The notes under the pieces were generated by a model. It was not told the origin of the DNA. It worked only from the letters and a program-made list of their open reading frames with translations, and did not search any database. A DNA stretch of 45,016 bases from positions 1-45,016 of IMG/VR virus record IMGVR_UViG_3300037424_002632; one strand, 5' to 3'. Source of the stretch: a virus (taxonomy: Duplodnaviria; Caudoviricetes). Below are positions 5,152 to 36,735 of the stretch, piece after piece. How positions within the stretch are numbered: position 1 is the first letter of the stretch; every line of letters starts with the position of its first letter. The translations under genes and the position numbers were made by a program.

Positions 5152-5690
5152 ACAGACCCCTCATCCTCATAGACGATGACCCGGCCATAGGGATAGGTCG
5201 GGGTGGCCAGATAGTTGTCCAGGACCTCGAGCATCATGGGCAACTCCATCACTTTTTTATCGTCCAGATTAAAAGAGCCGTTGGGCTTCAGTTGGCATTT
5301 GGGGATCTGGATCTCGAAGGCCATACCCATGCCGGGGGCAGGGGTACAGACCAGGCGGGCCACACCCTCGATATAGCCGGACGCCCCAATGGCGAACCGG
5401 TTACCCCCAGCCACCACCTCGGGGGCGTCCCCCTTGAAGAAGGCCTGGAGGTTTTCCAGGATGGGGGAATTGAGCTTGAAGCGGATCATCAGCTCTTCCT
5501 GGAGGGACCAGGTCTTGGCCACCCGGCGCTTGCCGGAGCGGTTGGAGTAGTATTTCAGTTCCTCGGTTTTGGGCTCCACCTCCAGGTTGGGAGACTCGAA
5601 GTAGCCCAGGTCACGCTCCCCGGTACCGTCGTTAAAGTAGAGTACGGTCGCGCCAGGAATGGTCAAGGCGGCAATATTGGTGCTTTCCAT
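5148..5690 (-). CDS. Major tail (tube) protein
   Basis: Position, 180 aa beta-rich sequence, RDLGYFE..LEV and IQIPKCQLKPNG segments resembling tail tube proteins. Confidence 0.78.
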   Translation of the reverse strand: MESTNIAALTIPGATVLYFNDGTGERDLGYFESPNLEVEPKTEELKYYSNRSGKRRVAKTWSLQEELMIRFKLNSPILENLQAFFKGDAPEVVAGGNRFAIGASGYIEGVARLVCTPAPGMGMAFEIQIPKCQLKPNGSFNLDDKKVMELPMMLEVLDNYLATPTYPYGRVIVYEDEGSV

Positions 5691-5700
5691 TGAATTCTCC

Positions 5701-12996: not shown

Positions 12997-13650
12997 TTAA
13001 ATTGGTTCGTCTTGCCGCTCGATCTTGGTGTGGCAGTTGTCGCCGTGAATCACCAGGTCACAGTAGCCCTCGGGCACCGTCACCACCCGGGGGAAGGCCT
13101 CCCAGATGAGGCGATGGTTATAGTCGTAAATGTAATGGTAGTCGGATTTGTCGGGCTGGTAGAGGCTGAGAAACATGGAGCCGCGCCGGGCATGATAACG
13201 GGTGCTCATGCGGTAGCGGCGCAGGGTGGCAATATTCAGTTTGTAGGGCTGAAATGACACCACCAGGGGCGCTCCCGGCCCCGCCCGTTCCACCTCCTTG
13301 CGGATGCGGGCCACATAGTGCCGGCTGACCAGGTCGTCGGAATCGTGCCGGGTCTGGATATCCACCCGGGGGAGGTCCTCGCCGTCCCCCGCCAGGGCGG
13401 CCAGGGCCAGCAGGCCGATCTCGGCGTCTTCCCGCCGGGGTTGGTCCCGGAAGGTCCGTATCCGGGGGTCCAGGGCCTCCAGGCGCTCCCGGTGGGCCGG
13501 ATGGCACCGAATCCATATCTCGAAGTCCGGGCAGCTCTGCCGCTGGAGGCAAGGCAGGGCCATGGCCTCGAAGAAAGCCAGCCGCCAACCCGCCCGGGGG
13601 TCTTCCGGCTCGAAGAACAGGCGGATGATAATGGCGTGGGTCAGGGTCAT
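12997..13650 (-). CDS. Glycosyltransferase, putative rhamnosyltransferase-like
   Basis: RLAFFEAMALPCLQRQSCPDF and TRHDSDD (DxD) motifs, VIHGDN near the C-terminus. Confidence 0.75.
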   Translation of the reverse strand: MTLTHAIIIRLFFEPEDPRAGWRLAFFEAMALPCLQRQSCPDFEIWIRCHPAHRERLEALDPRIRTFRDQPRREDAEIGLLALAALAGDGEDLPRVDIQTRHDSDDLVSRHYVARIRKEVERAGPGAPLVVSFQPYKLNIATLRRYRMSTRYHARRGSMFLSLYQPDKSDYHYIYDYNHRLIWEAFPRVVTVPEGYCDLVIHGDNCHTKIERQDEPI

Positions 13651-13970
13651 TGAAGCCTGCCCTCAAACAAGGCCGCCACCCCGCGGCGCACTACACTTTC
13701 ATAAATCCAGGCGTCATGTGCAATGACCAACTTGGTAAGTTCATCTGAAATAAACCTCGACGACTCTGAGGCAAGCTCCTTAACCGCTTTTTGAAACCCA
13801 GGGCTGCATATCGAATCACTCTTAAACCTGGTCCTGATTTCAATCATTCTCAAAAGCCCCATGGTGGTTACCAGGGCGTCTTTAACGGTCTGGTGAAATT
13901 GTGATAGTGGGATGGTGATTTCTCCGACGACGATATTGCGGATTGCTGGATCAATTATTTTTTCTTTCAT
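13647..13970 (-). CDS. Hypothetical protein
   Basis: ATGA overlaps on both sides; lower GC than neighbours. Confidence 0.7.
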   Translation of the reverse strand: MKEKIIDPAIRNIVVGEITIPLSQFHQTVKDALVTTMGLLRMIEIRTRFKSDSICSPGFQKAVKELASESSRFISDELTKLVIAHDAWIYESVVRRGVAALFEGRLQ

Positions 13971-14701
13971 GTTTCGCCCTCATATTTCGACGGTTCAGGA
14001 TAAAGGCTCTCCAAAATCTCCCACACCAACCGGGGAATATAATTCCCGGTGGACCAGCAGGGCCGTTCCCGTAATCTTTCCACCCAACCGTCCAGGCGGC
14101 CACCGGTCCTAACTGTCATCTTGCAATCAGGCAAATGAACCCCCGCCGCGGCGATCTCCGGCACGGAATTGCCATAAACGCTCTTCATCACCACCCCGGG
14201 TCCCTCCAGGTCCGCCCAATCCCAAGCGTCGAAGACCTCCAAAAACGGTCCCTGGTGGATCAAGATGGGTGTGTGAACGTCATAATCCAGGGTGGGCAGC
14301 CCCCGGGCCGTCAGGAGGTTCCGGGTGTTGGCCAGGCGCCGGGGGTATTCCCGGCTGGCAAACGGCGCCTTGAGCTCCCCCCGATGATAGTAAGGGAACT
14401 CCCCAGCCCGGCAGTCCTGGGAAAAGAAATGGTCATCATTGACGAAGAGAAACGGATCGCTGATCGCCGCATTCTTACAGGTGATCCGCATCTTGCGGAT
14501 AATGTTGGCATCCTTGTTGTGATCATAAGGATCGCACTCGGGTATCTGCACCAGACCCCGGCAGGGCCAGGCGATCGCCGCCCCCACCACGAAGACCCGC
14601 CCCACCCCGGCGAGGTGCTTTTCCAGGCTCCGCAGGGAATAGCGCAGCTCCTGGTGCTGGTAGAACTTATCCGGAGTCAGGAAATAAACCACGTCAGTCA
14701 A
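13967..14701 (-). CDS. Stealth-like sugar-phosphotransferase / glycosyltransferase
   Basis: DVVY, ELRYSLRSLEKH, FLFVNDDHFF and HTPILI motifs match Stealth conserved regions. Confidence 0.75.
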   Translation of the reverse strand: MTDVVYFLTPDKFYQHQELRYSLRSLEKHLAGVGRVFVVGAAIAWPCRGLVQIPECDPYDHNKDANIIRKMRITCKNAAISDPFLFVNDDHFFSQDCRAGEFPYYHRGELKAPFASREYPRRLANTRNLLTARGLPTLDYDVHTPILIHQGPFLEVFDAWDWADLEGPGVVMKSVYGNSVPEIAAAGVHLPDCKMTVRTGGRLDGWVERLRERPCWSTGNYIPRLVWEILESLYPEPSKYEGET

Positions 14702-24310: not shown

Positions 24311-24568
24311 ATGACCATCGCAGACCGCATCGCCACCCTGGAGCGCCTGGAGCGGCAAGATTTACCCGAGCTCGGGTTGAAGACCCTGGCCCGTGCCCAC
24401 CCTTGCCCCTGGGTCTTTTGCCGCATGCGTTTTATAAATTGGACTACAAATTCTCTTAACCTTATCAATCTATTGGGTAAAACATCGCGCTATCCAATTC
24501 CCTGCCCGCAGCTTTTTTGCCAGATGGTGGCAAATCAGATAAGGGCAAAAGGAATATTCAATGCCTAA
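24311..24568 (+). CDS. Hypothetical protein
   Basis: First ORF after promoter; overlaps ligase start. Confidence 0.6.
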   Translation: MTIADRIATLERLERQDLPELGLKTLARAHPCPWVFCRMRFINWTTNSLNLINLLGKTSRYPIPCPQLFCQMVANQIRAKGIFNA

Positions 24569-25181
24569 GGGCCTCTGCCAAGTTAGCCCCGATTGCCAAT
24601 ATTTTTACCCCGAGCAGCCGCGGCGCCCGGAAGACGGCCTGGCCCTCTTAGACCAACTGAGCCCCGACCCGGACTGGGTGGCGGAACCGAAATACAACGG
24701 CAACCGCCTGCAACTCTATGGTTTCGATGGGGACTGGCAGTTTTGGAACCGCCACGGCAGCCGCATGGCCTACGTTCCCAGCCCGGAGCTGCTCACCGCC
24801 TTGAATCATCTGAAGTTGGAGGGCCTGTGGCACTTCGACGGCGAACTGCGCCACAACAAGGTCAAGGGCACTCGCCATCAGATCGTGCTCTATGATCTTT
24901 TCATCGCCGATGGCGAATTCCTGATCATGCCCGATTTCGGCACCCGCCGGGCGGTCCTGGAAACTTTGATTGGCGACCACCTCACCGGCCCCTTGAGTCT
25001 GGCTCCCCAATTTACCACTTCCTTCCGCCGGGTCTTCCAGGAATTGCGCCAAGATAAAGAATTGGAGGGGCTGGTTTTAAAAAATCTCCGGGGCGAGCGG
25101 CAATTGAGCCCGTACTGCGGGACGCCAAGCCGCTGGATGTGGAAGATTAAATATTTAAAGGAGGCTCCCACTGATGCCTAA
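24561..25181 (+). CDS. ATP-dependent ligase-family nucleotidyltransferase, adenylation domain only
   Basis: Motifs I EPKYNGNR, III FDGEL, IIIa LYDLF, IV LEGLVLK, V MWKIK; ends 9 aa after motif V. Confidence 0.85.
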   Translation: MPKGLCQVSPDCQYFYPEQPRRPEDGLALLDQLSPDPDWVAEPKYNGNRLQLYGFDGDWQFWNRHGSRMAYVPSPELLTALNHLKLEGLWHFDGELRHNKVKGTRHQIVLYDLFIADGEFLIMPDFGTRRAVLETLIGDHLTGPLSLAPQFTTSFRRVFQELRQDKELEGLVLKNLRGERQLSPYCGTPSRWMWKIKYLKEAPTDA

Positions 25182-26219: not shown

Positions 26220-26248
26220 GCGAGGTACGGCATGGCAAGGCGAGGGAA
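26219..26248 (+). repeat. Degenerate pentanucleotide tract (GGCNN)x6
   Basis: AGCGA GGTAC GGCAT GGCAA GGCGA GGGAA. Confidence 0.5.
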
Positions 26249-26297
26249 CTTTTATATGCGACTACCGCATCATCAAAGATGCACCCAGGAACCCTTT

Positions 26298-26762
26298 ATG
26301 AGTGATTCCGTTCTCGAACAGATGGTGGCCTACGCCGTCCGGCATACCCCGGAACTGGCCATCAAGGAGATGGTGCTGCTGACCCAACGCGTCGCCGAAC
26401 TCGAACAGGAACTCGCCCGGGGGCAGGAGGCGCTGCCCGGCCCTGACCCCGCCGGCCGCCAACGGCCATTGTATTGTAGCTGCCGGGCCGTCAATGGCGA
26501 CGATCCGGCCTGCCGGGTCCATGGCACCTTTGAAACCGACATCACCCGGGCCAACAATCTCATCGCCGAATGGGGCCTCATAGCCCAAAGCATCGCCCAA
26601 CAGTGCAAGTGGCGCCCCCAGGGTAAATGCCTGCTCCACTGCCAGGGCATGGCCGTCTGCAACCTGGACGGCCTCACCCTGGTGGACCCCCAGGGCCGGT
26701 CCGTGGAAGTGGCACAAGCGTCCAGTGGCACAGGCGTCCCGCCTGTGGACCCTAAACCATGA
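26298..26762 (+). CDS. Hypothetical Cys-rich protein with REP-derived C-terminus
   Basis: MSDSVLEQ start; CSC...CRVHG motif. Confidence 0.6.
   Translation: MSDSVLEQMVAYAVRHTPELAIKEMVLLTQRVAELEQELARGQEALPGPDPAGRQRPLYCSCRAVNGDDPACRVHGTFETDITRANNLIAEWGLIAQSIAQQCKWRPQGKCLLHCQGMAVCNLDGLTLVDPQGRSVEVAQASSGTGVPPVDPKP
26725..26747 (+). repeat. REP-like palindrome
   Basis: GTGG CACAGGC GTCCC GCCTGTG GACC, preceded by half copy at 26709. Confidence 0.85.
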
Positions 26763-27043
26763 CCCACCCCATCCGCAAAAACTACTGGGTCATGGCCATA
26801 GGAAGAGAATTATGAGGAAACCGCCAAAAAACTTAGATACTGCACCGCGTTATTGCGCATGTGGTTGTGGAAAAATTCTCATCGCCGAATGGGGCCTCAT
26901 AGCCCAAAGCATCGCCCAACAGTGCAAGTGGCGCCCCCAGGGTAAATGCCTGCTCCACTGCCAGGGCATGGCCGTCTGCAACCTGGACGGCCTCACCCTG
27001 GTGGACCCCCAGGGCCGGTCCGTGGAAGTGGCACAAGCGTCCA

Positions 27044-27066
27044 GTGGCACAGGCGTCCCGCCTGTG
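27044..27066 (+). repeat. REP-like palindrome (duplicated copy)
   Basis: Identical to 26725..26747. Confidence 0.85.
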
Positions 27067-27130
27067 GACCCTAAACCATGACCCACCCCATCCGCAAAAA
27101 CTACTGGGTCATGGCCATAGGAAGAGAATT

Positions 27131-27637
27131 ATGAGGAAACCGCCAAAAAACTTAGATACTGCACCGCGTTATTGCGCATGTGGTTGTGGAAAAATTACCA
27201 ATATCTCACGAGACACCGGAAAAGGCCGGGTAAGAGGAAGATATAATAAATATTGTAACGGCCACAACCATAAAGGGGAAACAGGCTCACTATCCACCAC
27301 CTGGAAAGGTGGAAGGGTTAGCACCAAACATGTTTTAAAGGCAAGAGAAGTTCTTGGCAAATCATTGCCTAAAGGAACTGTAGTTCATCATCACTCAAAA
27401 GAACAACTTGTAATCTGTGAAAATCAAGCATATCACCTATTACTTCATCAACGCACAAGGGCGCTCAAAGCATGTGGTAATGCCAATTGGCGTAAGTGTT
27501 ATATATGCAAAAAATATGATGAGCCAAGGGGGCTTTCTATACCCAGCATGAAAGGTCGCCAAGCATATCATAAATGTTGCATGGCAAAACATGTCAGAAG
27601 GATAACATACAAACAAAAAGAAAAACCTATTTCCTAA
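27131..27637 (+). CDS. HNH-like homing endonuclease, possibly degenerate
   Basis: YCACGCGK, WKGG, HVLKAREVLGKSL..GTVVHH..LVICENQAYHLLLH; AT-rich; loop after HH looks shortened and lacks the usual Asn. Confidence 0.75.
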   Translation: MRKPPKNLDTAPRYCACGCGKITNISRDTGKGRVRGRYNKYCNGHNHKGETGSLSTTWKGGRVSTKHVLKAREVLGKSLPKGTVVHHHSKEQLVICENQAYHLLLHQRTRALKACGNANWRKCYICKKYDEPRGLSIPSMKGRQAYHKCCMAKHVRRITYKQKEKPIS

Positions 27638-27940: not shown

Positions 27941-28380
27941 TGATGGGGCCATTTGATCCGTTTCACATCAAGGATGAGCCGGGGTTTGATTACGGCTGGA
28001 GTGGAGACGCGATATCGCCCTACTCGCCTTTTTTTTACGATGGGGTCTCGATGATCTCCAAACGACACCTGATCAGTCACAAATGGGTGCAGGTGTTAAT
28101 GAGGCCCCGAATAGGTAGGAGTTTTACAGCCTGGCCGCACGATGGCTGTGATTATTTTGAACGGTTTGTTGCCATGGCCAAGGCAAAATATAGGATCGTC
28201 GGCCGGGACCACCGGGAGGGAGAGGATTGCGCAGTTTTGGTTTCTCCAGCACATAAATATTCCTGCATGGTACCGGCTTATCGACTGGTCACGGTATTGG
28301 CCTCGACTATGGCGACAGAGATTTATGGCGATTTGCCTGTCTCTGCGCTGGTGTTTTGGAAAGACGACGAATTGAGGTGA
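27940..28380 (+). CDS. Hypothetical protein
   Basis: TGATG coupling with upstream gene. Confidence 0.6.
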   Translation: MMGPFDPFHIKDEPGFDYGWSGDAISPYSPFFYDGVSMISKRHLISHKWVQVLMRPRIGRSFTAWPHDGCDYFERFVAMAKAKYRIVGRDHREGEDCAVLVSPAHKYSCMVPAYRLVTVLASTMATEIYGDLPVSALVFWKDDELR

Positions 28381-28385
28381 GACAC

Positions 28386-30224
28386 ATGCCTGAACCAGTC
28401 TGCCGCCTATGCGGTTGCACCGAAGACCTGGCCTGCCCGGGCGGCTGTTCCTGGGTGGCCGACCCTGAAAACCTCGGCGACCTTTGCAGTCGTTGCCTGG
28501 AAACGAACCGCGCCTGGGAAATCCCCCTGGACCAGATCCGCCCGGCGCCCTGGAACCCGCCTTCCCGGATGGACCCGGCCAAAGTTCAGGAACTGGCCGA
28601 CAGCATCAATCGAGAGGGGCAGAGGATAATCGCCCTGGTGCGGCCGGTGGAGGCTGAGGCCCCGGTAAAGTATGAGCTGGTCTTCGGCCACCGGCGTTAT
28701 GCCGCCAAGAAGCTGCTCTCAGAAAAGGTCGACGCGGCCCATGCGGTTCTCCAGGTCGAGATTGAGGAAATGGAGGAAGAAAGAGCCATGATCCTCTCCG
28801 GCATTGAGAACCTGCAGCGGGAAGGTTTCTCCGACATCGAGGAGGCCGAGTTCTTCCGGACCTGCGGCGAACGCTACGGCGAGTCGGCCGTTAAGATGCT
28901 CGCTGAAAAGCTCTCCGTCTCCGACCGCTATATCCGCAAGCGCATCGAGATCCTGAAGCTGCCGGAGGCGGCATTGGAGCTCTGGCGGTCGGGGACCTGG
29001 CACGTCGGCCACATGGAGCAGCTCCTGCGCCTGGGGGAGAGCGACAAGGTGGCGGCCTTCCTGGATAAATTTGATTCCTGGCGCCTTGAGGAACTTGCGG
29101 TTTGGGCCTTGAAAGATGTGATCAACCGCCAGGCCCTGCCGCTCCATGCCGGCAGCTTCGACAAGGCCGAGTGTAAGACCTGCCGCAAAAATACCGACTG
29201 CCAGTTGCGGTTGTTCGGCGGCGACAAGGACAAGGGCGCCAAGTGCCTGGACCAGCATTGCTTTCAACAGAAACAGGAGGCCTGGCTGGCCGTCAACTGG
29301 CCCACGTGCAAGGCTAATAAATTCGGGACCCAGGTTGCCGTTATCGGAGATTATAATACTCCCACCACCAGGTCACTTTCTGGTTATGGAGATCCCCGCC
29401 CGGCCGAAAAGTGCGCCTCTTGCCCGCAGTTTGCTACCATCCTGAGACTTGACGGTAGCCAAATTTACGAGTCTCAGAAAAAGGTGTGCCTGGGTAAAAG
29501 CGAGTGCTTCGCCGAGCTCACGAAGGCGGCCAAGAAGAACGGGGCGAAAAATAAGGTTGCAGCGCCCGATACTCCCCGGGTGGCCTGGCATGGCGAGTTT
29601 TACCGGCAGGAATTTTATCGCCAGGAGATCCCGCAACTCATGGCCGATTTGACCGCCGATGATCCCCGGCGGCTGCAGATCGCCCTGGCCACCCTCATTC
29701 ATTCCGCCCGTGATTTACATCCATGGTTTTGGGAGAAGCTGGGGCGGGAGGTCCCCAAACAAAAAAATAGTCGGGATAATTTTTCCCTGTCATTTCCCCA
29801 GATACTGCAACTGGTAAAGCAGAACAACGGCCTGCAGGCCGAGCTCCTGATCGGCGAGGTCCTGGTGAAAATCGCCCTGCAACCCGGCCGGGGCTATGAA
29901 ACCACCTTTTCCGACCGCGACCGCCAGGCCCTGGCCGAATTCCTCGACATCGATTTTGCCAAATTTAAGGTAACCGAAGAATACCTGAATAAGAAAACCA
30001 AAAGCGAGCTTGTGAGGTTTATCATTCACGATTCGGGTCTTTGGCAAACTCCCGAGTTCAAGGATGGCATGATTCGGCAAGGCCTTTCATCTGCATTAAC
30101 GCCTGAGCAGCTGGCCGCGCAGAAGAAGCCCGCCCTGGTGGATCTCCTGCTCAACTGCGGCGTGGATCTCCACGGCCGGCTGCCCAAGGAGATTGCGGAT
30201 CGGCCGAAACTGGCGAATGACTAA
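28386..30224 (+). CDS. ParB/RepB/Spo0J family protein with Cys-rich domains
   Basis: ELADSI..EG, YELVFGHRRY, IENLQREGFSDIEEA, HTH; N-terminal CRLCGCT..ACPGGCSWV; internal CKTC and CASC. Confidence 0.88.
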   Translation: MPEPVCRLCGCTEDLACPGGCSWVADPENLGDLCSRCLETNRAWEIPLDQIRPAPWNPPSRMDPAKVQELADSINREGQRIIALVRPVEAEAPVKYELVFGHRRYAAKKLLSEKVDAAHAVLQVEIEEMEEERAMILSGIENLQREGFSDIEEAEFFRTCGERYGESAVKMLAEKLSVSDRYIRKRIEILKLPEAALELWRSGTWHVGHMEQLLRLGESDKVAAFLDKFDSWRLEELAVWALKDVINRQALPLHAGSFDKAECKTCRKNTDCQLRLFGGDKDKGAKCLDQHCFQQKQEAWLAVNWPTCKANKFGTQVAVIGDYNTPTTRSLSGYGDPRPAEKCASCPQFATILRLDGSQIYESQKKVCLGKSECFAELTKAAKKNGAKNKVAAPDTPRVAWHGEFYRQEFYRQEIPQLMADLTADDPRRLQIALATLIHSARDLHPWFWEKLGREVPKQKNSRDNFSLSFPQILQLVKQNNGLQAELLIGEVLVKIALQPGRGYETTFSDRDRQALAEFLDIDFAKFKVTEEYLNKKTKSELVRFIIHDSGLWQTPEFKDGMIRQGLSSALTPEQLAAQKKPALVDLLLNCGVDLHGRLPKEIADRPKLAND

Positions 30225-30310
30225 ATTCTCTGGTTCTGCCCTTGCCACGCTCTGATGACATTCGGTGCGGTGGTGGAAATCGCCGTTGACAGCCTTGGAG
30301 AATCGCGGTA

Positions 30311-30646
30311 ATGACCCTTAAGCCCCTTCTTACCCCGGAACAGGTCGCCGACCTCTTGCAAATCAGCCCGCAAACGGTGTATCGTTACCAGGCGCGGTTA
30401 GGGGGTTTTTGTCCTGCTGGTATTGGGGTATTGCGATTTAAGCCAGGGATAATCCATGCCATCATGGAAAACCAAATGGGGGTGGCGGTACCGGTTTCAA
30501 TTGAGCGGGGAGTTCTACGGGAAGTCGGGATTCAAAACCAAGAAAGAGAGCGAGGCCGCAGAAGCGGCACATCGAAAAAAGTTAAAACCAGCGAAGAACT
30601 CCGCACCCGAGCCGCAGAAGTCGGGCTTCGCCTCCCTGACCGTTGA
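30311..30646 (+). CDS. xis: Excisionase-like HTH protein
   Basis: LLTPEQVADLLQISPQTVYR; directly upstream of and overlapping integrase. Confidence 0.75.
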   Translation: MTLKPLLTPEQVADLLQISPQTVYRYQARLGGFCPAGIGVLRFKPGIIHAIMENQMGVAVPVSIERGVLREVGIQNQERERGRRSGTSKKVKTSEELRTRAAEVGLRLPDR

Positions 30647-31505
30647 GTACCTGGAATGGGGAAAGCGCCGATTTGCCGATAAGACCTGGAAATATAAGCG
30701 TTTCGTTTTCCAGACCTTCCTGGATCGAATGGGGGATATGCCTTTATCGGACTTGTCCCTGCCCGCCCTGGAAAAATTTCTTCTGACCCGTCACAGCAAT
30801 TCCAATTACAACCGCTTTCGGAAAGAACTCTGCTGCCTCCTGGCCTGGGCCAGAAAGCGGAGATATGTCGATACTGATCCCTGCTTTGACCTGGAAAAAC
30901 TCAAAGAGGACCACGCCCGAAAAATCATTCCTACCCAAGACGATATGCGCCGGCTGCTCCTGGCGGCAGGGGAGGACCGGCCCTTGATCCTGGTCCTCTA
31001 TCATACCCTGGCACGAATAGATGAAGCTCTACGGCTCCGGTGGCAGGACGTGAATTTTCAGGAGCAGGCGGTGACTCTCTGGACCCGAAAACGCCAGGGC
31101 GGGGAATGGGCCAGTGATACCATGCACATGAATCAAGTGTTGTACGACACGCTCTGGACGCTCTGGAAGGCCCGGAAACAAGAGGAGTGGGTATTTCTGA
31201 ACCCCAGGAGCGGGACGCGTTATATCTACCGTCCCAAGCTCATGAGGTCAATCTGCAAACGAGCCGGGGTAAGACATTTTGGCTTTCATGCGATCCGGCA
31301 TTATGTCGCCAGTTTTCTTCATGATGCCAAGAAAATCTCCGTGTCCCAGGTGAGCAAACTTTTGAGGCACCAGAACAAGGCGACCACGGAGAGATATTTG
31401 CAGGTGGTAGACCCGGGCTCCCGGGCGGCAATGAAGGCTCTTGAGGGGGATTTTTTGATGCCTCTCAATGATCAATCTCAAAATAGTCCAGATAGTTGTA
31501 ACTAA
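30456..31505 (+). CDS. int: Tyrosine integrase
   Basis: Arm-binding N-domain; catalytic R (LARIDE), HAIR, LRH and TERY all present. Confidence 0.95.
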   Translation: MPSWKTKWGWRYRFQLSGEFYGKSGFKTKKESEAAEAAHRKKLKPAKNSAPEPQKSGFASLTVEYLEWGKRRFADKTWKYKRFVFQTFLDRMGDMPLSDLSLPALEKFLLTRHSNSNYNRFRKELCCLLAWARKRRYVDTDPCFDLEKLKEDHARKIIPTQDDMRRLLLAAGEDRPLILVLYHTLARIDEALRLRWQDVNFQEQAVTLWTRKRQGGEWASDTMHMNQVLYDTLWTLWKARKQEEWVFLNPRSGTRYIYRPKLMRSICKRAGVRHFGFHAIRHYVASFLHDAKKISVSQVSKLLRHQNKATTERYLQVVDPGSRAAMKALEGDFLMPLNDQSQNSPDSCN

Positions 31506-31555
31506 AGAGACTTGCGCTATCACCTAATATAAATTATAATCTCCTTATAAATCAA

Positions 31556-31632
31556 TGGTCGGGGTGGCGAGATTTGAACTCGCAACTTCTTGGTCCCAAA
31601 CCAAGCGCGCTGCCGGATTGCGCTACACCCCG
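31556..31632 (-). tRNA. trnP: tRNA-Pro (TGG), complete with CCA; candidate attP
   Basis: Acceptor CGGGGTG/CACCCCG, D stem GCGC/GCGC, anticodon arm CTTGG-TTTGGGA-CCAAG, T arm GCGAG-TTCAAAT-CTCGC, ACCA end; 77 nt. Confidence 0.96.
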
Positions 31633-31647
31633 AAAAGGAGATTAATC

Positions 31648-32190
31648 TTGACTGCCTGGAATACTAAATATGGCTGGCGTTATCGCTTCACGGTTAACGG
31701 TCAATCTTACACCGGTTCTCCATTTATTACAAAGGAAGAAGCCATAGAGGCGGAGACAGAACGCCGCAAGGCAGTTACCGCAGAGGCATCTAAACAGGCA
31801 CTAATTATAATTCCTTTCACCATGGATATTGGCCGGGGGGCCAAAGGCCGGAAGCCCCTGGAAATCGTGATTGACAGCAAAGGCTGCTTTATCTGTATTT
31901 CTCATAAGAATCAAGTGGGCTATCCGCAAATCAAACACCTGGGTAAATATATTAGGCTACACAGGTTGGTTTATCAAGTGCTCCATGGCCCGATCCCGGA
32001 AGGAATATTGGTCATGCACACTTGCGACAACCCTTTATGCATCAACCCGCTTCACCTTACCCTGGGAACTCATGCGGACAACCAAGCAGACAAGGTTGCC
32101 AAAGGAAGGCACCTACCCTCGATGGAAATTATAGAAAGCATGAAATATCCTGACAGGGTTCTGAGGCATTTTCACGAACAAAAATCATGA
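31648..32190 (+). CDS. HNH endonuclease with N-terminal integrase arm-binding-like domain
   Basis: AAGGAG RBS plus TTG start; RLHRLVY..HGPIP...VMHTCDNPLCINPLHLTLGTHADNQAD; N-terminus paralogous to Int residues 1-43. Confidence 0.9.
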   Translation: MTAWNTKYGWRYRFTVNGQSYTGSPFITKEEAIEAETERRKAVTAEASKQALIIIPFTMDIGRGAKGRKPLEIVIDSKGCFICISHKNQVGYPQIKHLGKYIRLHRLVYQVLHGPIPEGILVMHTCDNPLCINPLHLTLGTHADNQADKVAKGRHLPSMEIIESMKYPDRVLRHFHEQKS

Positions 32191-32437
32191 AAATTAACAA
32201 ACCCGCGCAGACAACCTTCTCAGGTACTTAGACGCCAAAATGTCTATATAACTAAAAGAGTAGTGAATTAAATTGGTTATGATGTCAAATTTAGTAGCGA
32301 CACCCCGCTCCCAAAGCAGTGAGGCCATACTCGAGGCCCTGAAAACATGGGGGTTTGCGGAGAAAATCTTCTCATATTTATAGCCTAATCTTCTCAAATA
32401 CCCTCCAATCCGCGCAATGGACCCGCGCAAATATCTC

Positions 32438-32471
32438 TTGAAAAAACTTCCTTATAGTAATATATTATATT
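32438..32471 (+). promoter_or_regulatory. Sigma70-type promoter with overlapping inverted repeat
   Basis: TTGAAA-17 bp-TATATT; AATATA-T-TATATT at 32459..32471. Confidence 0.65.
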
Positions 32472-32472
32472 C

Positions 32473-32601
32473 ATGCTAAAGATTCTTAAATTGATTTGCC
32501 TCCGGTGTGGACATAAATGGGTGCCCAGGAAAGAAGAGGTCAGGGTATGCCCACATTGCAAAAGCCCTTATTGGAATAAGGAAAAGCAGGCAAAATCCTA
32601 G
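32473..32601 (+). CDS. 42-aa zinc-ribbon microprotein, probably leaderless
   Basis: Not in ORF track; MLKILKLICLRCGHKWVPRKEEVRVCPHCKSPYWNKEKQAKS; ATG at the predicted +1. Confidence 0.8.
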   Translation: MLKILKLICLRCGHKWVPRKEEVRVCPHCKSPYWNKEKQAKS

Positions 32602-32626
32602 TGGTTCTTATATCTGGGGAGGACTC

Positions 32627-33013
32627 ATGGAATATCTGGTCATCTGGGGATTTTTCGGGATCCTTGCCGCCACTATCGCCGGCGGCAAGGGCCGCAGCGG
32701 CTTCAGCTGGTTTATCCTGGGGCTACTTCTGGGACCCTTCGCCCTGGCGGTGGCCTGCTTGCCGTCCTTGAAGCCGCAGTTCGTGGCGGCCGCCCCGGCG
32801 CCGGCCGCCGGCCTGGTGCCCTGCCCGGAGTGCGCCGAGCTGATCCAGCGCCAGGCCCGGAAGTGCCGCTTCTGCGGCAGTGCCGTCACCCCGCCGCCGG
32901 AGCCCAAGGACCTGGCCTGCTATCATTGTAATTGGCTCAACAAGCGCAGCGCCATTTACTGCTCCGACTGCGGCAAGAAGGTGCATTCCCCGCTGTATGA
33001 TTTTTTTAATTGA
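32627..33013 (+). CDS. Membrane protein with zinc-ribbon domains
   Basis: GGAGG RBS; IAGGKGRSGFSWFILGLLLGP TM hairpin; CPEC..CRFC and CYHC..CSDC. Confidence 0.85.
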   Translation: MEYLVIWGFFGILAATIAGGKGRSGFSWFILGLLLGPFALAVACLPSLKPQFVAAAPAPAAGLVPCPECAELIQRQARKCRFCGSAVTPPPEPKDLACYHCNWLNKRSAIYCSDCGKKVHSPLYDFFN

Positions 33014-33030
33014 AAGCGCCAAGGCTTCCC

Positions 33031-33082
33031 GTTCCTTCGGCCGGTCCGCCCCGACAGAATGCAGGCGGACCGGCCCCGGAAC
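33031..33082. terminator. GC-rich hairpin between convergent operons
   Basis: GGCCGGTCCGCC / GGCGGACCGGCC 12-bp stem extended by GTTCC/GGAAC; no adjacent U tract. Confidence 0.55.
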
Positions 33083-33085
33083 TGC

Positions 33086-33238
33086 CTACTTGTTAAAATA
33101 GTCCTCCGGCTTCTTGTCGATGAACGCCGCCCGGATCTGATCCGGGGTGGGTTCGCCCGATTCCTTCCAGGCCGCCAGCACCCCCAGCACGGTGTCAATG
33201 CCTAATTTGGCCAGCCAAGCCACCAATAGTGGATCCAT
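33086..33238 (-). CDS. Small hypothetical protein (50 aa), last late gene
   Basis: Not in ORF track; TAATG coupling; MDPLLVAWLAKLGIDTVLGVLAAWKESGEPTPDQIRAAF. Confidence 0.7.
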   Translation of the reverse strand: MDPLLVAWLAKLGIDTVLGVLAAWKESGEPTPDQIRAAFIDKKPEDYFNK

Positions 33239-33615
33239 TATTCCACCCCCAGAAGGTAAGGTGTCGCCGCGTCCAGGAACAGATCCAGGGCCGCCCGCAC
33301 CGTCGCAAGATTGGCCGTCCCGTCCGCCAGGAGGGCCTGGACCGCGGCGTTGTGCGCCTGCATATAGAGATTACCCAGCCGGATCGCTTTGGCCTTGGCG
33401 GCCGCCGGCAGCTTCCCCTGACGGTCCAGGAGGGCCAGGGTCTGGAAGGTTGAGTCGTAAATCTGCTTGTCCAGGTTCAGGGCTTGCAGCGCCTGAGCCT
33501 TGGGGCTCGGGGACGCTTGGGAGGTTGGGGGCGCCTGGGGGGGTGACGCGCAGGCCGCCACCAGGACCAGCAGTAGCAGTAGGGGCAACAGGACTCGGTG
33601 GGAGCGGTGCAGCAT
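33238..33615 (-). CDS. Lipoprotein, spanin-like candidate
   Basis: AAGGAG RBS; LLLLLLVLVAAC lipobox; end of lysis region. Confidence 0.7.
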   Translation of the reverse strand: MLHRSHRVLLPLLLLLVLVAACASPPQAPPTSQASPSPKAQALQALNLDKQIYDSTFQTLALLDRQGKLPAAAKAKAIRLGNLYMQAHNAAVQALLADGTANLATVRAALDLFLDAATPYLLGVE

Positions 33616-33886
33616 AAGGCAGCTCTCCTTTGATGGGGGGAGGCACCCCTTTGACGGAGGCCCCCCAGATGTAATCTATGATGGTGCTGGCCTTGGCCAG
33701 ATACCAACCCAGGGTGGTGCTGATAATCGTGTTGAGGAAGTTCCAGACCAGGCTATCCCCAGAACATTTCTCCCCAAATAACAGCACCAGCACGGTAACG
33801 AGAACCCCGTAAAGGATGGCAGAGAAGATGATCGCCAGACCCACGGTGAACTTGAATGCCTGCCAGGTTTGCGGCAGAAGTTTCAT
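33371..33886 (-). CDS. Holin-like membrane protein
   Basis: Two TM segments, TIIDYIWGAS motif; Pro-rich tail overlaps lipoprotein gene in another frame. Confidence 0.6.
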   Translation of the reverse strand: MKLLPQTWQAFKFTVGLAIIFSAILYGVLVTVLVLLFGEKCSGDSLVWNFLNTIISTTLGWYLAKASTIIDYIWGASVKGVPPPIKGELPYAAPLPPSPVAPTATAGPGGGLRVTPPGAPNLPSVPEPQGSGAASPEPGQADLRLNLPDPGPPGPSGEAAGGRQGQSDPAG

Positions 33887-33918
33887 TTATCCCCTCTTTT
33901 TCTGCACCGCGGTGGCCA

Positions 33919-34239
33919 CTACACCAGATGGGGATTTAGGGGGGCGTCTGGTGGCGTGGTGTCGAAAGGGACGATGAGGGCCTCGGTCAGGTCGGACAGG
34001 TTCCCCATGATGTCCTTGCAGGCCAGCATCACGAAGGTTTTGTCGCCGGCGGCGGGCGGCAGAAAGCCGTCGGCATCTTCCGGATAACGGTAGATCATGT
34101 CCGGGGCCGGGACTTCCTGGCTGGGGGAGTCATAGTCGATCCGCTCCGGGTCATCCCCGAAGAAAATCACGGTGCTGGCCAGGTCGGGGGTGATTGGCAG
34201 GTACCAGGCGAGTGCGAAACGTCCACCAACGATTTTCAT
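33919..34239 (-). CDS. Fibronectin type III-like protein
   Basis: LAW...TFVMLACKDIMGNLS..DTTPPDAP pattern; AGGAG RBS. Confidence 0.55.
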   Translation of the reverse strand: MKIVGGRFALAWYLPITPDLASTVIFFGDDPERIDYDSPSQEVPAPDMIYRYPEDADGFLPPAAGDKTFVMLACKDIMGNLSDLTEALIVPFDTTPPDAPLNPHLV

Positions 34240-34263
34240 GCTGCTCTCCTTTTCAGGTTAAAG

Positions 34264-34641
34264 TTATTGCCAAACCCATCCCAGACCCTCGGTCCATAAT
34301 TGAATCCAGGTGGGAGTCAAAGGCTTGATCCGAACGTAAAAATAGGTCATACCTTTCAGATTCCCGTCGGGGTAAGTGAACCCCGGGTCGGTTTCCGCAA
34401 AGATTTGGCCGGAATGGTTCATAAAGAAAAAATTGCCGGGTTTCCAGTATTGCGCGGCCATGGCCAGGCACTGCTGTTTGAGGCTGGCCGGCGTATGGTA
34501 AGACCCGTAGGTAGTGACGCACATGGCCACTTCGCCTTTGATCTGAATGAGGGTGACGTTTCCGGCCGAGAACACCTTGCTCTCGCCCCAGGCAGGGGCA
34601 GCAAAGAACAGAAGCGCCAGGATAATCCCGAGGATCTTCAT
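34264..34641 (-). CDS. Secreted hypothetical protein
   Basis: Signal peptide MKILGIILALLFFAAPAWG; ATGA overlap. Confidence 0.7.
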   Translation of the reverse strand: MKILGIILALLFFAAPAWGESKVFSAGNVTLIQIKGEVAMCVTTYGSYHTPASLKQQCLAMAAQYWKPGNFFFMNHSGQIFAETDPGFTYPDGNLKGMTYFYVRIKPLTPTWIQLWTEGLGWVWQ

Positions 34642-34955
34642 TTCAAGAACACCACCACGTTAAGGTAGGTTTGGGGGACCGGGCGGGGAGTGGGCTGCAC
34701 CATGCCCGTCACCGGGTCTTTGACCGGCTCGGCGCCAAGCATGGAGGTGACCAGGGCCACATCCGGGGTGCCGTACAGCGCCGCCCCCTGCTTGGCATTC
34801 TCCACCAGGGTGGCCAGCGGCAGGGTAACCGGCTGGGTCAGCTTGCCCACTGCCACCCCGGGACAAAGCAGCGTGACCTCGACCCCGGCGGCGGCAAAAA
34901 TCTGGATGACGGTGCAAAAGATGATGACAGCGGTTAACCCCAGAATCTTAGTCAT
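34638..34955 (-). CDS. Secreted/membrane hypothetical protein
   Basis: GGAGG RBS; N-terminal hydrophobic segment. Confidence 0.65.
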   Translation of the reverse strand: MTKILGLTAVIIFCTVIQIFAAAGVEVTLLCPGVAVGKLTQPVTLPLATLVENAKQGAALYGTPDVALVTSMLGAEPVKDPVTGMVQPTPRPVPQTYLNVVVFLK

Positions 34956-34973
34956 AGGTCCTCCGGTCAAATC

Positions 34974-35285
34974 TTATGGTTCTTCGTACTGCACGTCGGC
35001 GTCATCGACAATGGCGGTGAAGCTCTGTATATCAAACTGGATCAGGCCGGTGCGGATCGCCCAGGCGATTGCCTGGTTCATGCTCTTGACGCCAATTTTC
35101 AGCATGATGTGCTGTCGATGCGCCTCCACCGTCTTCAGCGAGACAAAATGCTTCTGGGCAATATCAACCGTTCTCATCCCGGAAATGTAATCGCGCAAAA
35201 CCAGGATCTCGGTCAGGGTGATGGGCGAGGCCTCCATGAGCTTGCCGCACTCCGGGCAGTAATAAATGGAGCTGCATCGGCCCAC
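34974..35285 (-). CDS. LuxR/NarL-type HTH regulator without receiver domain
   Basis: GMRTVDIAQKHFVSLKTVEAHRQHIMLKIGVKS...WAIRTGLI; N-terminal C..YYCPECG. Confidence 0.85.
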   Translation of the reverse strand: MGRCSSIYYCPECGKLMEASPITLTEILVLRDYISGMRTVDIAQKHFVSLKTVEAHRQHIMLKIGVKSMNQAIAWAIRTGLIQFDIQSFTAIVDDADVQYEEP

Positions 35286-35516
35286 CTACCGCACCTCCGC
35301 ACAGGCGGCGCGGAGAAATTGCCCCAACAACTCCTGGGCGGCCTGCTGGCCCGCCGCCTCCGATTCCAGGTGTTGGGCCGGGACCAGCGGTTTGAACGAC
35401 ACGATAAAGTGGCCATCCTCGGTGTGCCGGCCCACGGTCACAATCGTCCGGTCGCCCAGCTTTCCATTCAGCAGCCCCGAGGCCATGCGGGACCACTTCA
35501 GGGGCGGTAGCTTCAT
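35286..35516 (-). CDS. Hypothetical protein
   Basis: ATGA overlap with endolysin stop (MKLPPLKW). Confidence 0.6.
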   Translation of the reverse strand: MKLPPLKWSRMASGLLNGKLGDRTIVTVGRHTEDGHFIVSFKPLVPAQHLESEAAGQQAAQELLGQFLRAACAEVR

Positions 35517-36220
35517 AGCCGAGTCCTGGGAAGCTGAAAGTGCATCCCGTCGGGGGTGCTCCACCAGCCGCCCCACTCGAACCCGGCGTCGGTAAAGCAC
35601 ATAACGAATCCGGGGGATAAGGCAGGCTTCCGACCATAGGCGTTCGTGCCGGCGTTGAAATCCACGGCCAGGCCCCAGGCATGGACCGACCAACCGTTGC
35701 CGGAGGTCATGGGCCGGACACAGACGCAGCCGTCAAAGGTCTTCAGTTCCTTGGAGAAGCCACGGTCGATGAGGTTCTTGAAGGCCTGCCGCAGCGGGGT
35801 CTCCATGAGCTTGTGGGCGTATACCCGGCACAACCAAAGCTGACCCAGATAGTTCTTCACATGAGAAAAGGCGCCCTTAAATTCCGAGAAGTCGAGCACC
35901 GCCAGATAGGGGGCCGGATCCCGGGGCTTGCCGAAAAGAGAGGTAAGCTGGCTCTGCAAGAGGACCTTCCCGACGGGCAGGTTGGGTTCTTCGGTTTCGT
36001 CGTCCTCAGCCCCGGACTCTTGAAAGAGCTTTTGCCAGGTTTCCGGGCCCACGATCCCGTCAGCATCCAGGCCATTGGTTTCTTGAAAATCGATAACCAT
36101 ATCTTCGGTTAGCCCGCCGAAGTCATTGTCGACGACAAGCTGTTCCTCATAAATCTCGTTGAGCCTGGCCTGAACCTGGCCTACTTGCGGCCCTTTGGAT
36201 CCAAAGCGTAGAAGATTCAT
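35513..36220 (-). CDS. Endolysin: peptidoglycan-binding domain plus M15 family peptidase
   Basis: DNDFGGLTE..V.DFQ..NGL.ADGIVGPETW; SVHAWGLAVD; FEWGGWW..PDGMHFQ. Confidence 0.92.
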   Translation of the reverse strand: MNLLRFGSKGPQVGQVQARLNEIYEEQLVVDNDFGGLTEDMVIDFQETNGLDADGIVGPETWQKLFQESGAEDDETEEPNLPVGKVLLQSQLTSLFGKPRDPAPYLAVLDFSEFKGAFSHVKNYLGQLWLCRVYAHKLMETPLRQAFKNLIDRGFSKELKTFDGCVCVRPMTSGNGWSVHAWGLAVDFNAGTNAYGRKPALSPGFVMCFTDAGFEWGGWWSTPDGMHFQLPRTRL

Positions 36221-36258
36221 CCACTCCTCCCTCTCTTATCTTGGGCCGGATGTCCCGT

Positions 36259-36735
36259 TCATTCATCCCGGGGCAAATCTCGGGGGTCGATGATTTGTTT
36301 GGCCAGCAAGCCGTTGGTAATGCAGGTAATCCCTTTCCGGATACCCTTCAGTTCCTTAAAGAACATCTCCCGGTCAGCATGATGTTTGGCTTCCAAGGCC
36401 TCGATATCCTGTTTATTTTGCAGGCTCCGTTGATTTTCTTCCCCATGTTTCGGACAATTTTCCGGCATGGCACAGGCCAGGCCGGCCAGGACCATCCGAT
36501 CTAAAACCATTTCCGCCCGATCCCCCGCCATGGCTTTCCGATCCCCCGCCATGGCCTTGCGGTCCTCGGCCGCACTCACATTTACCGTCACCACGTCCTT
36601 GCCCAGGAATTTTTTGGCCAGTTGCACCAGCAACAACCCGGCCCCCTTACCGATGGAAATCATTAAGATAACGAGCAGCAACAGGATTTCCGTTTCATGC
36701 CCGGCGCAGATGCTTTTAAACAAGGTCCCCCCCAT
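36259..36735 (-). CDS. Single-TM protein before endolysin (holin-like candidate)
   Basis: ILLLLVILMISIG segment, charged C-terminus; internal 21-bp tandem duplication at 36518..36559 (DRKAMAG x2). Confidence 0.55.
   Translation of the reverse strand: MGGTLFKSICAGHETEILLLLVILMISIGKGAGLLLVQLAKKFLGKDVVTVNVSAAEDRKAMAGDRKAMAGDRAEMVLDRMVLAGLACAMPENCPKHGEENQRSLQNKQDIEALEAKHHADREMFFKELKGIRKGITCITNGLLAKQIIDPRDLPRDE

Follow-up and report, generated by a model that had tools for sequence, protein, structure and literature searches.

A phage HNH nuclease headed by an integrase-family domain, encoded between a tRNA-Pro gene and a predicted attachment site

Analysis of a 45,016-bp virus record (the window, analysed at its full length) indicated the presence, next to the integrase gene, of a gene whose product is predicted to be an intact HNH nuclease headed by a domain of the integrase family. 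Judged from sequence, this is a real and rare fusion. The best explanation may be a free-standing homing endonuclease that has been re-aimed by its head at integrase arm repeats, a proposal to which we give an even chance of being correct.

Results

Gene order at the integration locus

The window contains terminase, portal, head, tail and endolysin genes. It was read as the probable genome of a temperate phage whose integration region is in the attP form, and as circularly permuted because both ends of the record fall inside one minus-strand structural block. The order at the integration locus is xis, int, a tRNA-Pro gene on the opposite strand and the fusion gene, with the xis frame overlapping the start of int. 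The features are as follows.

30311..30646, plus strand: excisionase-like gene, xis (HTH_17, E 3.6e-7; phrog_66 excisionase, E 6.3e-6)
30456..31505, plus strand: tyrosine integrase gene, int, 349 aa (PF00589, E 2.5e-19)
31556..31632, minus strand: full-length tRNA-Pro(TGG) gene that encodes its CCA end and is recoded compared with host-type copies
31635..31640, plus strand: Shine-Dalgarno-like site, 7 nt before the TTG (duplex -8.7 kcal/mol)
31648..32190, plus strand: fusion gene, product P0001, 180 aa (integrase-type head, linker, HNH_3/His-Me finger nuclease)
31648..31782, plus strand: head domain, residues 1-45 (predicted three strands and a helix, model pLDDT 85.8)
31858..32115, plus strand: HNH domain, residues ~71-156 (phrog_1872, E 6.9e-28)

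The HNH frame opens at 31648, 15 bp from the 5' end of the tRNA at 31632, exactly as an earlier note on this DNA had reported. Int has an N-terminal arm-binding-type domain at approximately residues 1 to 45, with a weak match to Arm-DNA-bind_4 (E 0.029), and belongs to a Desulfobacterota family with relatives mostly from Desulfobaccales and Syntrophales.

The locus region was present in two sediment runs; a further run, X3, which contained a small share, was left out, and no RNA run was listed among those with the region. A Logan contig from run X1, possibly the source sample, matched positions 29922-36500 of the window without differences, and a contig from a second study (X2) did so over 31431-31755. 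An assembly chimera at the fusion junction is unlikely, since the X1 and X2 contigs both carry the junction unchanged. Promoter and terminator scans of the window gave results at chance level, and a terminator-like hairpin on the minus strand (31783-31764) is of a kind no commoner here than in shuffled sequence.

Start, head and nuclease domain of the fusion gene

Comparison of the first 43 residues of the HNH protein with Int gave 21 identities without gaps, the initiator being counted, which reproduced the resemblance first described in the note. The local score of the head against Int was 114, whereas shuffled sequences (n = 5,000) scored 30.9 on average and 66 at most. This identity ends at the domain boundary, with 21 identities detected whether 43, 45, 50 or 60 residues were compared. 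The domain lies inside the translated protein, as had been assumed: the TTG start is preceded by a strong Shine-Dalgarno site and a homologue, P0247, has a Met at the same column. A start at the internal ATG at 31822 (MDIGRG) was rejected, having a duplex energy of +1.8 kcal/mol and no Shine-Dalgarno match.

A model of the head, built on an alignment of integrase heads, predicted strands at residues 3-6, 9-16 and 19-22 and a helix at residues 29-45. Integrase clusters made up 9 of the 10 structural matches listed for the head in the ESM Atlas (TM 0.74-0.88), and the head scored 49 bits against a profile of integrase heads. In a model of full-length P0001, the head was poorly predicted, the alignment there having only two rows. 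The Pfam arm families did not match P0001; Arm-DNA-bind_4 was matched by the neighbouring Int and by P0247 at an E value of about 0.03. Searching the PDB by sequence detected no arm domain for the head and no match of any kind for P0001, and a Foldseek search gave no solved arm domain at E <= 0.001 (3jtz and 3rmp were at about 2). The positions W, RY-F and F-TK-EA of the integrase family are retained in the head. Overall, the head comparisons, the structural matches and the predicted fold support the assignment of an arm-binding-type domain, namely, that of this integrase family.

HNH_3 matched residues 103-146 with 43.3 bits, compared to a Pfam cut-off of 24.8. The HNH motif was found to be intact, in agreement with the first description, as C80, H124, C126, C131, N133, H136 and N145 fit conserved columns of an alignment (A7) whose rows were picked by a pattern over residues 123-129, conservation over that stretch being partly by choice. 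We take these residues to comprise the catalytic His and Asn and the Zn ligands. The GC3 of the fusion gene was 0.50 versus 0.64 for int.

Relationship of the head to integrases

The note had described the head as a copy of the Int domain. Homology of the two domains was upheld but recent copying was not, as only 11 of 43 third codon positions are alike. DNA identity between the head and int was 68/129, and recent duplication from the neighbouring int was rejected because third codon positions are saturated. Neither did the head prove closest to its neighbour in the comparison that the note had proposed; the neighbouring Int took 4th place among 120 integrases when ranked by score and 20th among 208 heads when ranked by identity. 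Identity of the head was 55% to the L111 Int, 51% to the P0028 group and 44% to the neighbour. One motif, chosen after the fact, was common to the HNH head, the neighbour and P0015 only, among 209 heads.

Trees of the 45-residue head placed the fusions in three positions, and none of three groupings was rejected by AU tests with 55/208 rows (p 0.57, 0.78 and 0.67). Neither an origin from the neighbour nor a single origin of all fusions was rejected by the tree tests, and we make no claim on the number of fusion origins because the AU tests reject no grouping. Across 46 integrase loci among L081-L201, the residue at head position 13 covaried with several arm-repeat columns; 0 of 1,000 shuffles reached as high a value of this statistic, which ignores kinship. 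Position 13 is Arg in the HNH head and the neighbouring Int and Gln in the P0028 group. The shared Arg is a hint only.

These identities bear on a different reading, that of a weapon resembling the Odn nuclease of a Vibrio phage, in which a domesticated phage gene would destroy the attP, attL or attR of competitors at tRNA-Pro without copying itself. The head is as close or closer to the L111 Int and the P0028 group than to the neighbour; both are tied to tRNA-Pro, which is targeted by many elements of the Int family, and the available text on Odn provides a precedent for a nuclease with a DNA-binding domain taken from the target element (PMC8263062). The position of the gene against attP, its rarity and its low GC3 suit a mobile gene, however, and a weapon does not exclude homing, since one cut would serve both. 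We consider a weapon without self-copying unlikely.

Homologues and other fusions of the head

A protein search of 1.84 billion representatives was performed, and only the best 150 of 160,637 matches, mostly multi-HNH proteins, were inspected, so weaker fusions would have been missed. Among the matches listed, a single protein, P0247, was homologous over its full length, with 41% identity across 155 aa; it was also the only one of the 149 other matches listed to have the head. The HNH domains of P0001 and P0247 were mutual best matches among 173, with 53% identity between these domains and 36% between the heads. Retention of both head and nuclease at 41% identity suggests that the fusion has lasted through a long divergence.

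The domain order that the note had proposed to search for recurs in P0247 and, with another endonuclease, in P0168 and P0170. In the latter two, the same head is joined to a phrog_2340 endonuclease; in P0162 and P0169, it is joined to a short tail without an assigned function. These four were among the 54 proteins detected by a head-profile search of proteins of 24-315 aa; pieces of integrases and plain HNH proteins made up most of the 54.

No case of the fusion was found in 240 HNH loci, in 83 class genomes or in two samples of 401 phylum genomes. The class search gave 45 head matches; the 8 with frames of <300 aa were cut, frameshifted or stopped integrases, and the remaining 37 were retrieved in part. 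No DNA context for the fusions was found in viral contigs with P0001, A5, A3, P0325 and P0170 as queries, in metagenome contigs with A5, in annotated phages with P0247 and the head, or in genomes. Two viral-contig matches, L361 (an integrase) and L370 (a chance match), were rejected as fusions. A position beside attP is thus predicted for the fusion at a single locus, that of the window. P0170 and the integrase P0103 are each encoded on an 18,780-bp Logan contig, possibly the same one, and P0247 on a Logan contig of 3,509 bp.

The gene could also be a relic, with an HNH gene lying in frame behind an old integrase stump that supplies a start site but no useful binding. Integrase stumps of 60-80 aa do exist in the Int family (L096/P0138, L170), and the heads of P0001 and P0247 have diverged further than their HNH domains. 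Identity with Int stops exactly at the domain end, however, and the head keeps its family positions despite the saturation of third codon positions. The gene also has its own ribosome-binding site with no xis in front, and the head persists in the distant homologue. We consider a relic quite improbable.

Predicted attachment site

Examination of the sequence downstream of the nuclease gene suggested that the true attP probably lies at 32203-32430. The repeats and core are as follows.

31461..31483, plus strand: repeat pair in the int tail, spacing 13, at the near-arm position of relatives and unlike the G-type pair
32203..32222, plus strand: predicted near arm pair (one G-type and one T-type unit), 12 bp past the HNH stop
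32307..32319, minus strand: 13-bp predicted core of attP (same letters in the anticodon arm of host-type tRNA-Pro(TGG))
32355..32397, plus strand: additional repeat units beyond the core (pair 32355/32368, single unit 32390)
32410..32430, plus strand: predicted far arm pair (two G-type units), core +102/+115

The nuclease gene was placed outside attP because the predicted site starts beyond the HNH stop. A candidate with the full tRNA as att core and the nuclease inside attP was dropped once the downstream sequence had shown a core-like 13-mer and the arm spacing. The core is on the same strand as the full tRNA, and among host-type tRNA-Pro copies (n = 16) it has a 13-bp match in 11 and a 12-bp match in 1; the core match alone is weak, with 22 of 200 shuffled 45-kb windows giving an equal length. 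Repeat pairs flank the core at -105/-92 and +102/+115, and the far pair was found at +104/+116, +103/+115 and +83/+114 in three related phages. In the Int family, a tandem pair of C-rich repeats, 11-13 bp apart, is present at the end of int (46 head-bearing loci), and free-phage forms have a second repeat pair after a tRNA-derived core. The repeat pattern was drawn from these same window repeats, and its genome-wide counts were at chance level. Three G-type and three T-type units are present in the predicted attP, while the relatives inspected look uniform; the G-type repeat is probably the arm site of Int.

From a visual comparison with the P0015 and X2 contig 7 tails, the pair in the int tail may be the decayed remnant of a near arm. 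X2 contig 7 (172 bp) has an identical 100-bp int end, then 7 letters and then 22 letters of the window far pair. Its tail peptide looks similar, on visual inspection, to that of P0015, an integrase with 81% identity. This contig, a single one with a depth of 2.5 and only 22 letters on its short side, could represent the canonical layout without the cassette and is a candidate empty allele.

The location of the gene raises the possibility of a recombination regulator that competes with Int for the arms or nicks attP and so biases integration versus excision. The gene is in line with xis and int and ends close to the near arm, and it would be subject to antisense transcription only after integration. 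An excisionase gene is already present, however, the gene is absent from related phages and competition needs no intact nuclease site. Such a regulator is a very remote prospect.

The full tRNA-Pro

All 21 stem pairs (21/21) are kept in the phage tRNA, with six two-sided changes, three of these in the T-stem and two in the anticodon stem. Of 15 host-type copies, the nearest differs from it at 14 positions. The T-stems of host-type tRNA-Pro copies vary too, with up to 17 differences between copies. A swap at 32/40 in the anticodon stem is common to the phage tRNA and that of a related phage, L082, and is in no host-type copy; it would have removed the core sequence from the phage copy. According to the accessible part of one account, a canonical attP carries one end of the tRNA gene, and this fragment makes the gene whole again (PMC4383910). 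As a 13-bp internal core at attP cannot restore the host tRNA, the full tRNA may be a replacement for a host gene that is split on integration.

Nucleases beside the attP of related phages

Thirteen viral loci were compared, with L082-L084 forming one lineage, L089 and L090 ending at int and L092 resembling a host junction. The arrangement at L082:5077-5960 (also in L083 and L084) consists of a full recoded tRNA-Pro, an arm pair, a short anticodon core and an arm pair, and in L082 a NUMOD4-HNH gene abuts the other end of the full tRNA-Pro. The first gene beside int/attP was an HNH gene in three of eight distinct related phages (L082, L086 and L087). These HNH genes are ordinary and unrelated to the fusion, and no integrase head was found on any of the three.

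The pairing in L082 bears on a mode of action like that of T4 SegB. In such a system, the nuclease would recognise host-type tRNA-Pro (the 3' half of which is in a canonical attP), the recoded tRNA would be an immunity allele and the head would supply only general DNA affinity. The two-sided changes in the phage tRNA would fit this, and in L082, too, an HNH gene abuts a full recoded tRNA-Pro. The portion of the SegB report available describes an enzyme that spreads tRNA genes and has a T-loop motif as its recognition site (PMC2330249). T-stem variation also occurs among host-type copies, however, and the change common to L082 sits in the anticodon stem, where removal of the att core explains it; furthermore, a tRNA-cutting enzyme would endanger the host chromosome. 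We regard this reading in its entirety as decidedly unlikely.

Several other arrangements were observed in these relatives. In L081, a 146-aa gene (5255-5695) lies right after attP and by eye resembles a PD-(D/E)XK nuclease; it had no Pfam or PHROG match. Genes for phrog_2340-type endonucleases without the head lie upstream of xis in L081 (3342-3761) and L082 (2074-2517). A full tRNA-Pro is located just after int, and co-oriented with it, in L178 / L195 and L101 / L172; in L178, it lies between int and a convergent tRNA-Val.

Discussion

Proposed homing at integrase arm repeats

Under the preferred reading of a homing endonuclease, the head would dock on the integrase arm repeats of related phages that have no cassette, and the nuclease would nick or cut beside these repeats. 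This genome would then serve as the template for repair of the cut rival, with homology provided by int to the left and by the arm region to the right, and a block of the int tail, tRNA and nuclease would be copied into the rival. The phage's own allele would be spared, as the nuclease gene and not the usual tRNA 3' half adjoins the near arm. After integration, the host tRNA-Pro gene would be split, and transcription from its promoter would run leftwards, crossing the core and then the nuclease gene in antisense before it reached the tRNA 675 bp away. From the geometry alone, this antisense read-through could damp the nuclease in the lysogen.

The homing reading is supported by the match of the far-pair spacing to that of relatives and by the persistence of the fusion in P0247. 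The joining of the same head to another endonuclease in P0168 and P0170, the presence of HNH genes beside int/attP in three of the eight relatives, the fit of X2 contig 7 to a cassette-free layout and the low GC3 also support it. It is weakened by the head not being closest to the neighbouring Int, by the rarity of the fusion and by the HNH genes beside the attP of relatives, which manage without an integrase head. The weakness of the 13-bp core match taken alone, the chance-level counts of the repeat pattern, the short, low-depth X2 joint and the hairpin at 31783-31764 also count against it. According to the part of the source available, a typical HNH_3 protein is a homing endonuclease whose targeting comes from additional DNA-binding domains (PMC5714182).

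A wider reading joins four proposals. Temperate phages may contest tRNA sites with integrase-headed nucleases that read the arm code of rivals; the nuclease may have moved attP and put a recoded, integration-proof copy in the place of the host tRNA; integration may silence the nuclease by antisense read-through from the host tRNA promoter; and the two types of attP repeat may be separate docking sites, one for Int and one for the nuclease. Taken as a whole, this combination is tentative and somewhat improbable.

Comparison with known systems

In principle, the closest known system would be Odn (Gp88) of Vibrio phage ICP1, which binds and cleaves repeats of the targeted element's protein (PMC8263062). 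As far as the available text describes it, Odn is likewise a chimeric phage nuclease with a DNA-binding domain resembling a protein of its target element, and its nuclease part is from a homing-endonuclease family (PMC8263062). Odn has a replication-origin-binding domain directed against a satellite origin, whereas an integrase-type head is joined here to HNH_3; in addition, the fusion gene lies directly beside the predicted attP of its own phage, which is temperate.

In family, the HNH-AP2 endonucleases are closest, with the domain order reversed. In the accessible portions of two accounts, HNH-AP2 and IPA-HNH proteins (His-Me finger group 2, I-HmuI type) combine HNH_3 with a small domain of three strands and one helix, but the AP2 domain is C-terminal and the head of P0001 is N-terminal (PMC10448857, PMC5714182). 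Moreover, the P0001 head has no PF00847 match and is 44-55% identical to the integrase heads of one family. It also weakly matches the C-terminal parts of two HNH PHROGs (E 0.005-0.02). The arm-binding (AB) domain of integrases, as described in the portion available, has the same N-terminal three strands and helix (bioRxiv 10.1101/542381); here it is joined to a nuclease and not to core-binding and catalytic domains.

T4 SegB, in the parts of its report that were available, resembles the present enzyme in being a free-standing homing endonuclease beside tRNA genes that it carries along; it differs in being a GIY-YIG enzyme of a lytic phage that recognises tRNA sequence, with no integrase context described there (PMC2330249). 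Islander-type attP sites in tRNA genes, as set out in the available text, are similar in their arm-core-arm arrangement of ~230 bp and in a crossover predicted in the anticodon loop (PMC4383910). The present site differs in having only a 13-bp internal core, with the full recoded tRNA 675 bp away and a nuclease between. The Islander filter for internal fragments, as that text presents it, would reject this attP (PMC4383910). No report of an arm-domain nuclease at attP was found in a full-text literature collection that covered few subscription papers, and supplementary tables could contain such fusions.

If the proposed reading is right, attachment sites would be targets of phage-against-phage nucleases and integrase arm domains would be reusable addressing modules, so that the principle seen in Odn at replication origins would apply to integration sites as well. 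As a compact test system, the locus would offer a nuclease, an integrase, a core and arms as predicted here, and a candidate empty allele. A predicted attP design of a minimal anticodon core and a distant recoded full tRNA is one that fragment-based island finders would reject. Finally, the covariation of one head residue with the arm sequence across the 46 loci may offer a handle on arm-site recognition and possibly a recognition code.

Other features of the window and the Int family

A gene for a 622-aa ParB-domain protein (28356-30224) lies immediately upstream of xis-int. Further upstream, at 26232-27200, is a tandem duplication with a period of ~319 bp, which may be real or an assembly effect; the ORFs at 26232-26762 and 26725-27081 have the same ~70 aa at their ends, and the ORFs starting at 26725 and 27044 are alike at their start. 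The ORF at 27044-27637 encodes a His/Cys-rich protein of 197 aa that by eye could be a second mobile nuclease and has a weak match to a PHROG of unknown function. Between terminase and portal (12997-14701) are rhamnosyl-transferase-like and Stealth-like genes, a possible glycan-modification module, and a small gene at 24561-25181 has an ATP-dependent DNA ligase domain. In the Int family, xis and a 74-aa integrase stump lie upstream of a complete xis-int at L096:3078-3489, and the stump cluster P0138 occurs on 41 contigs.
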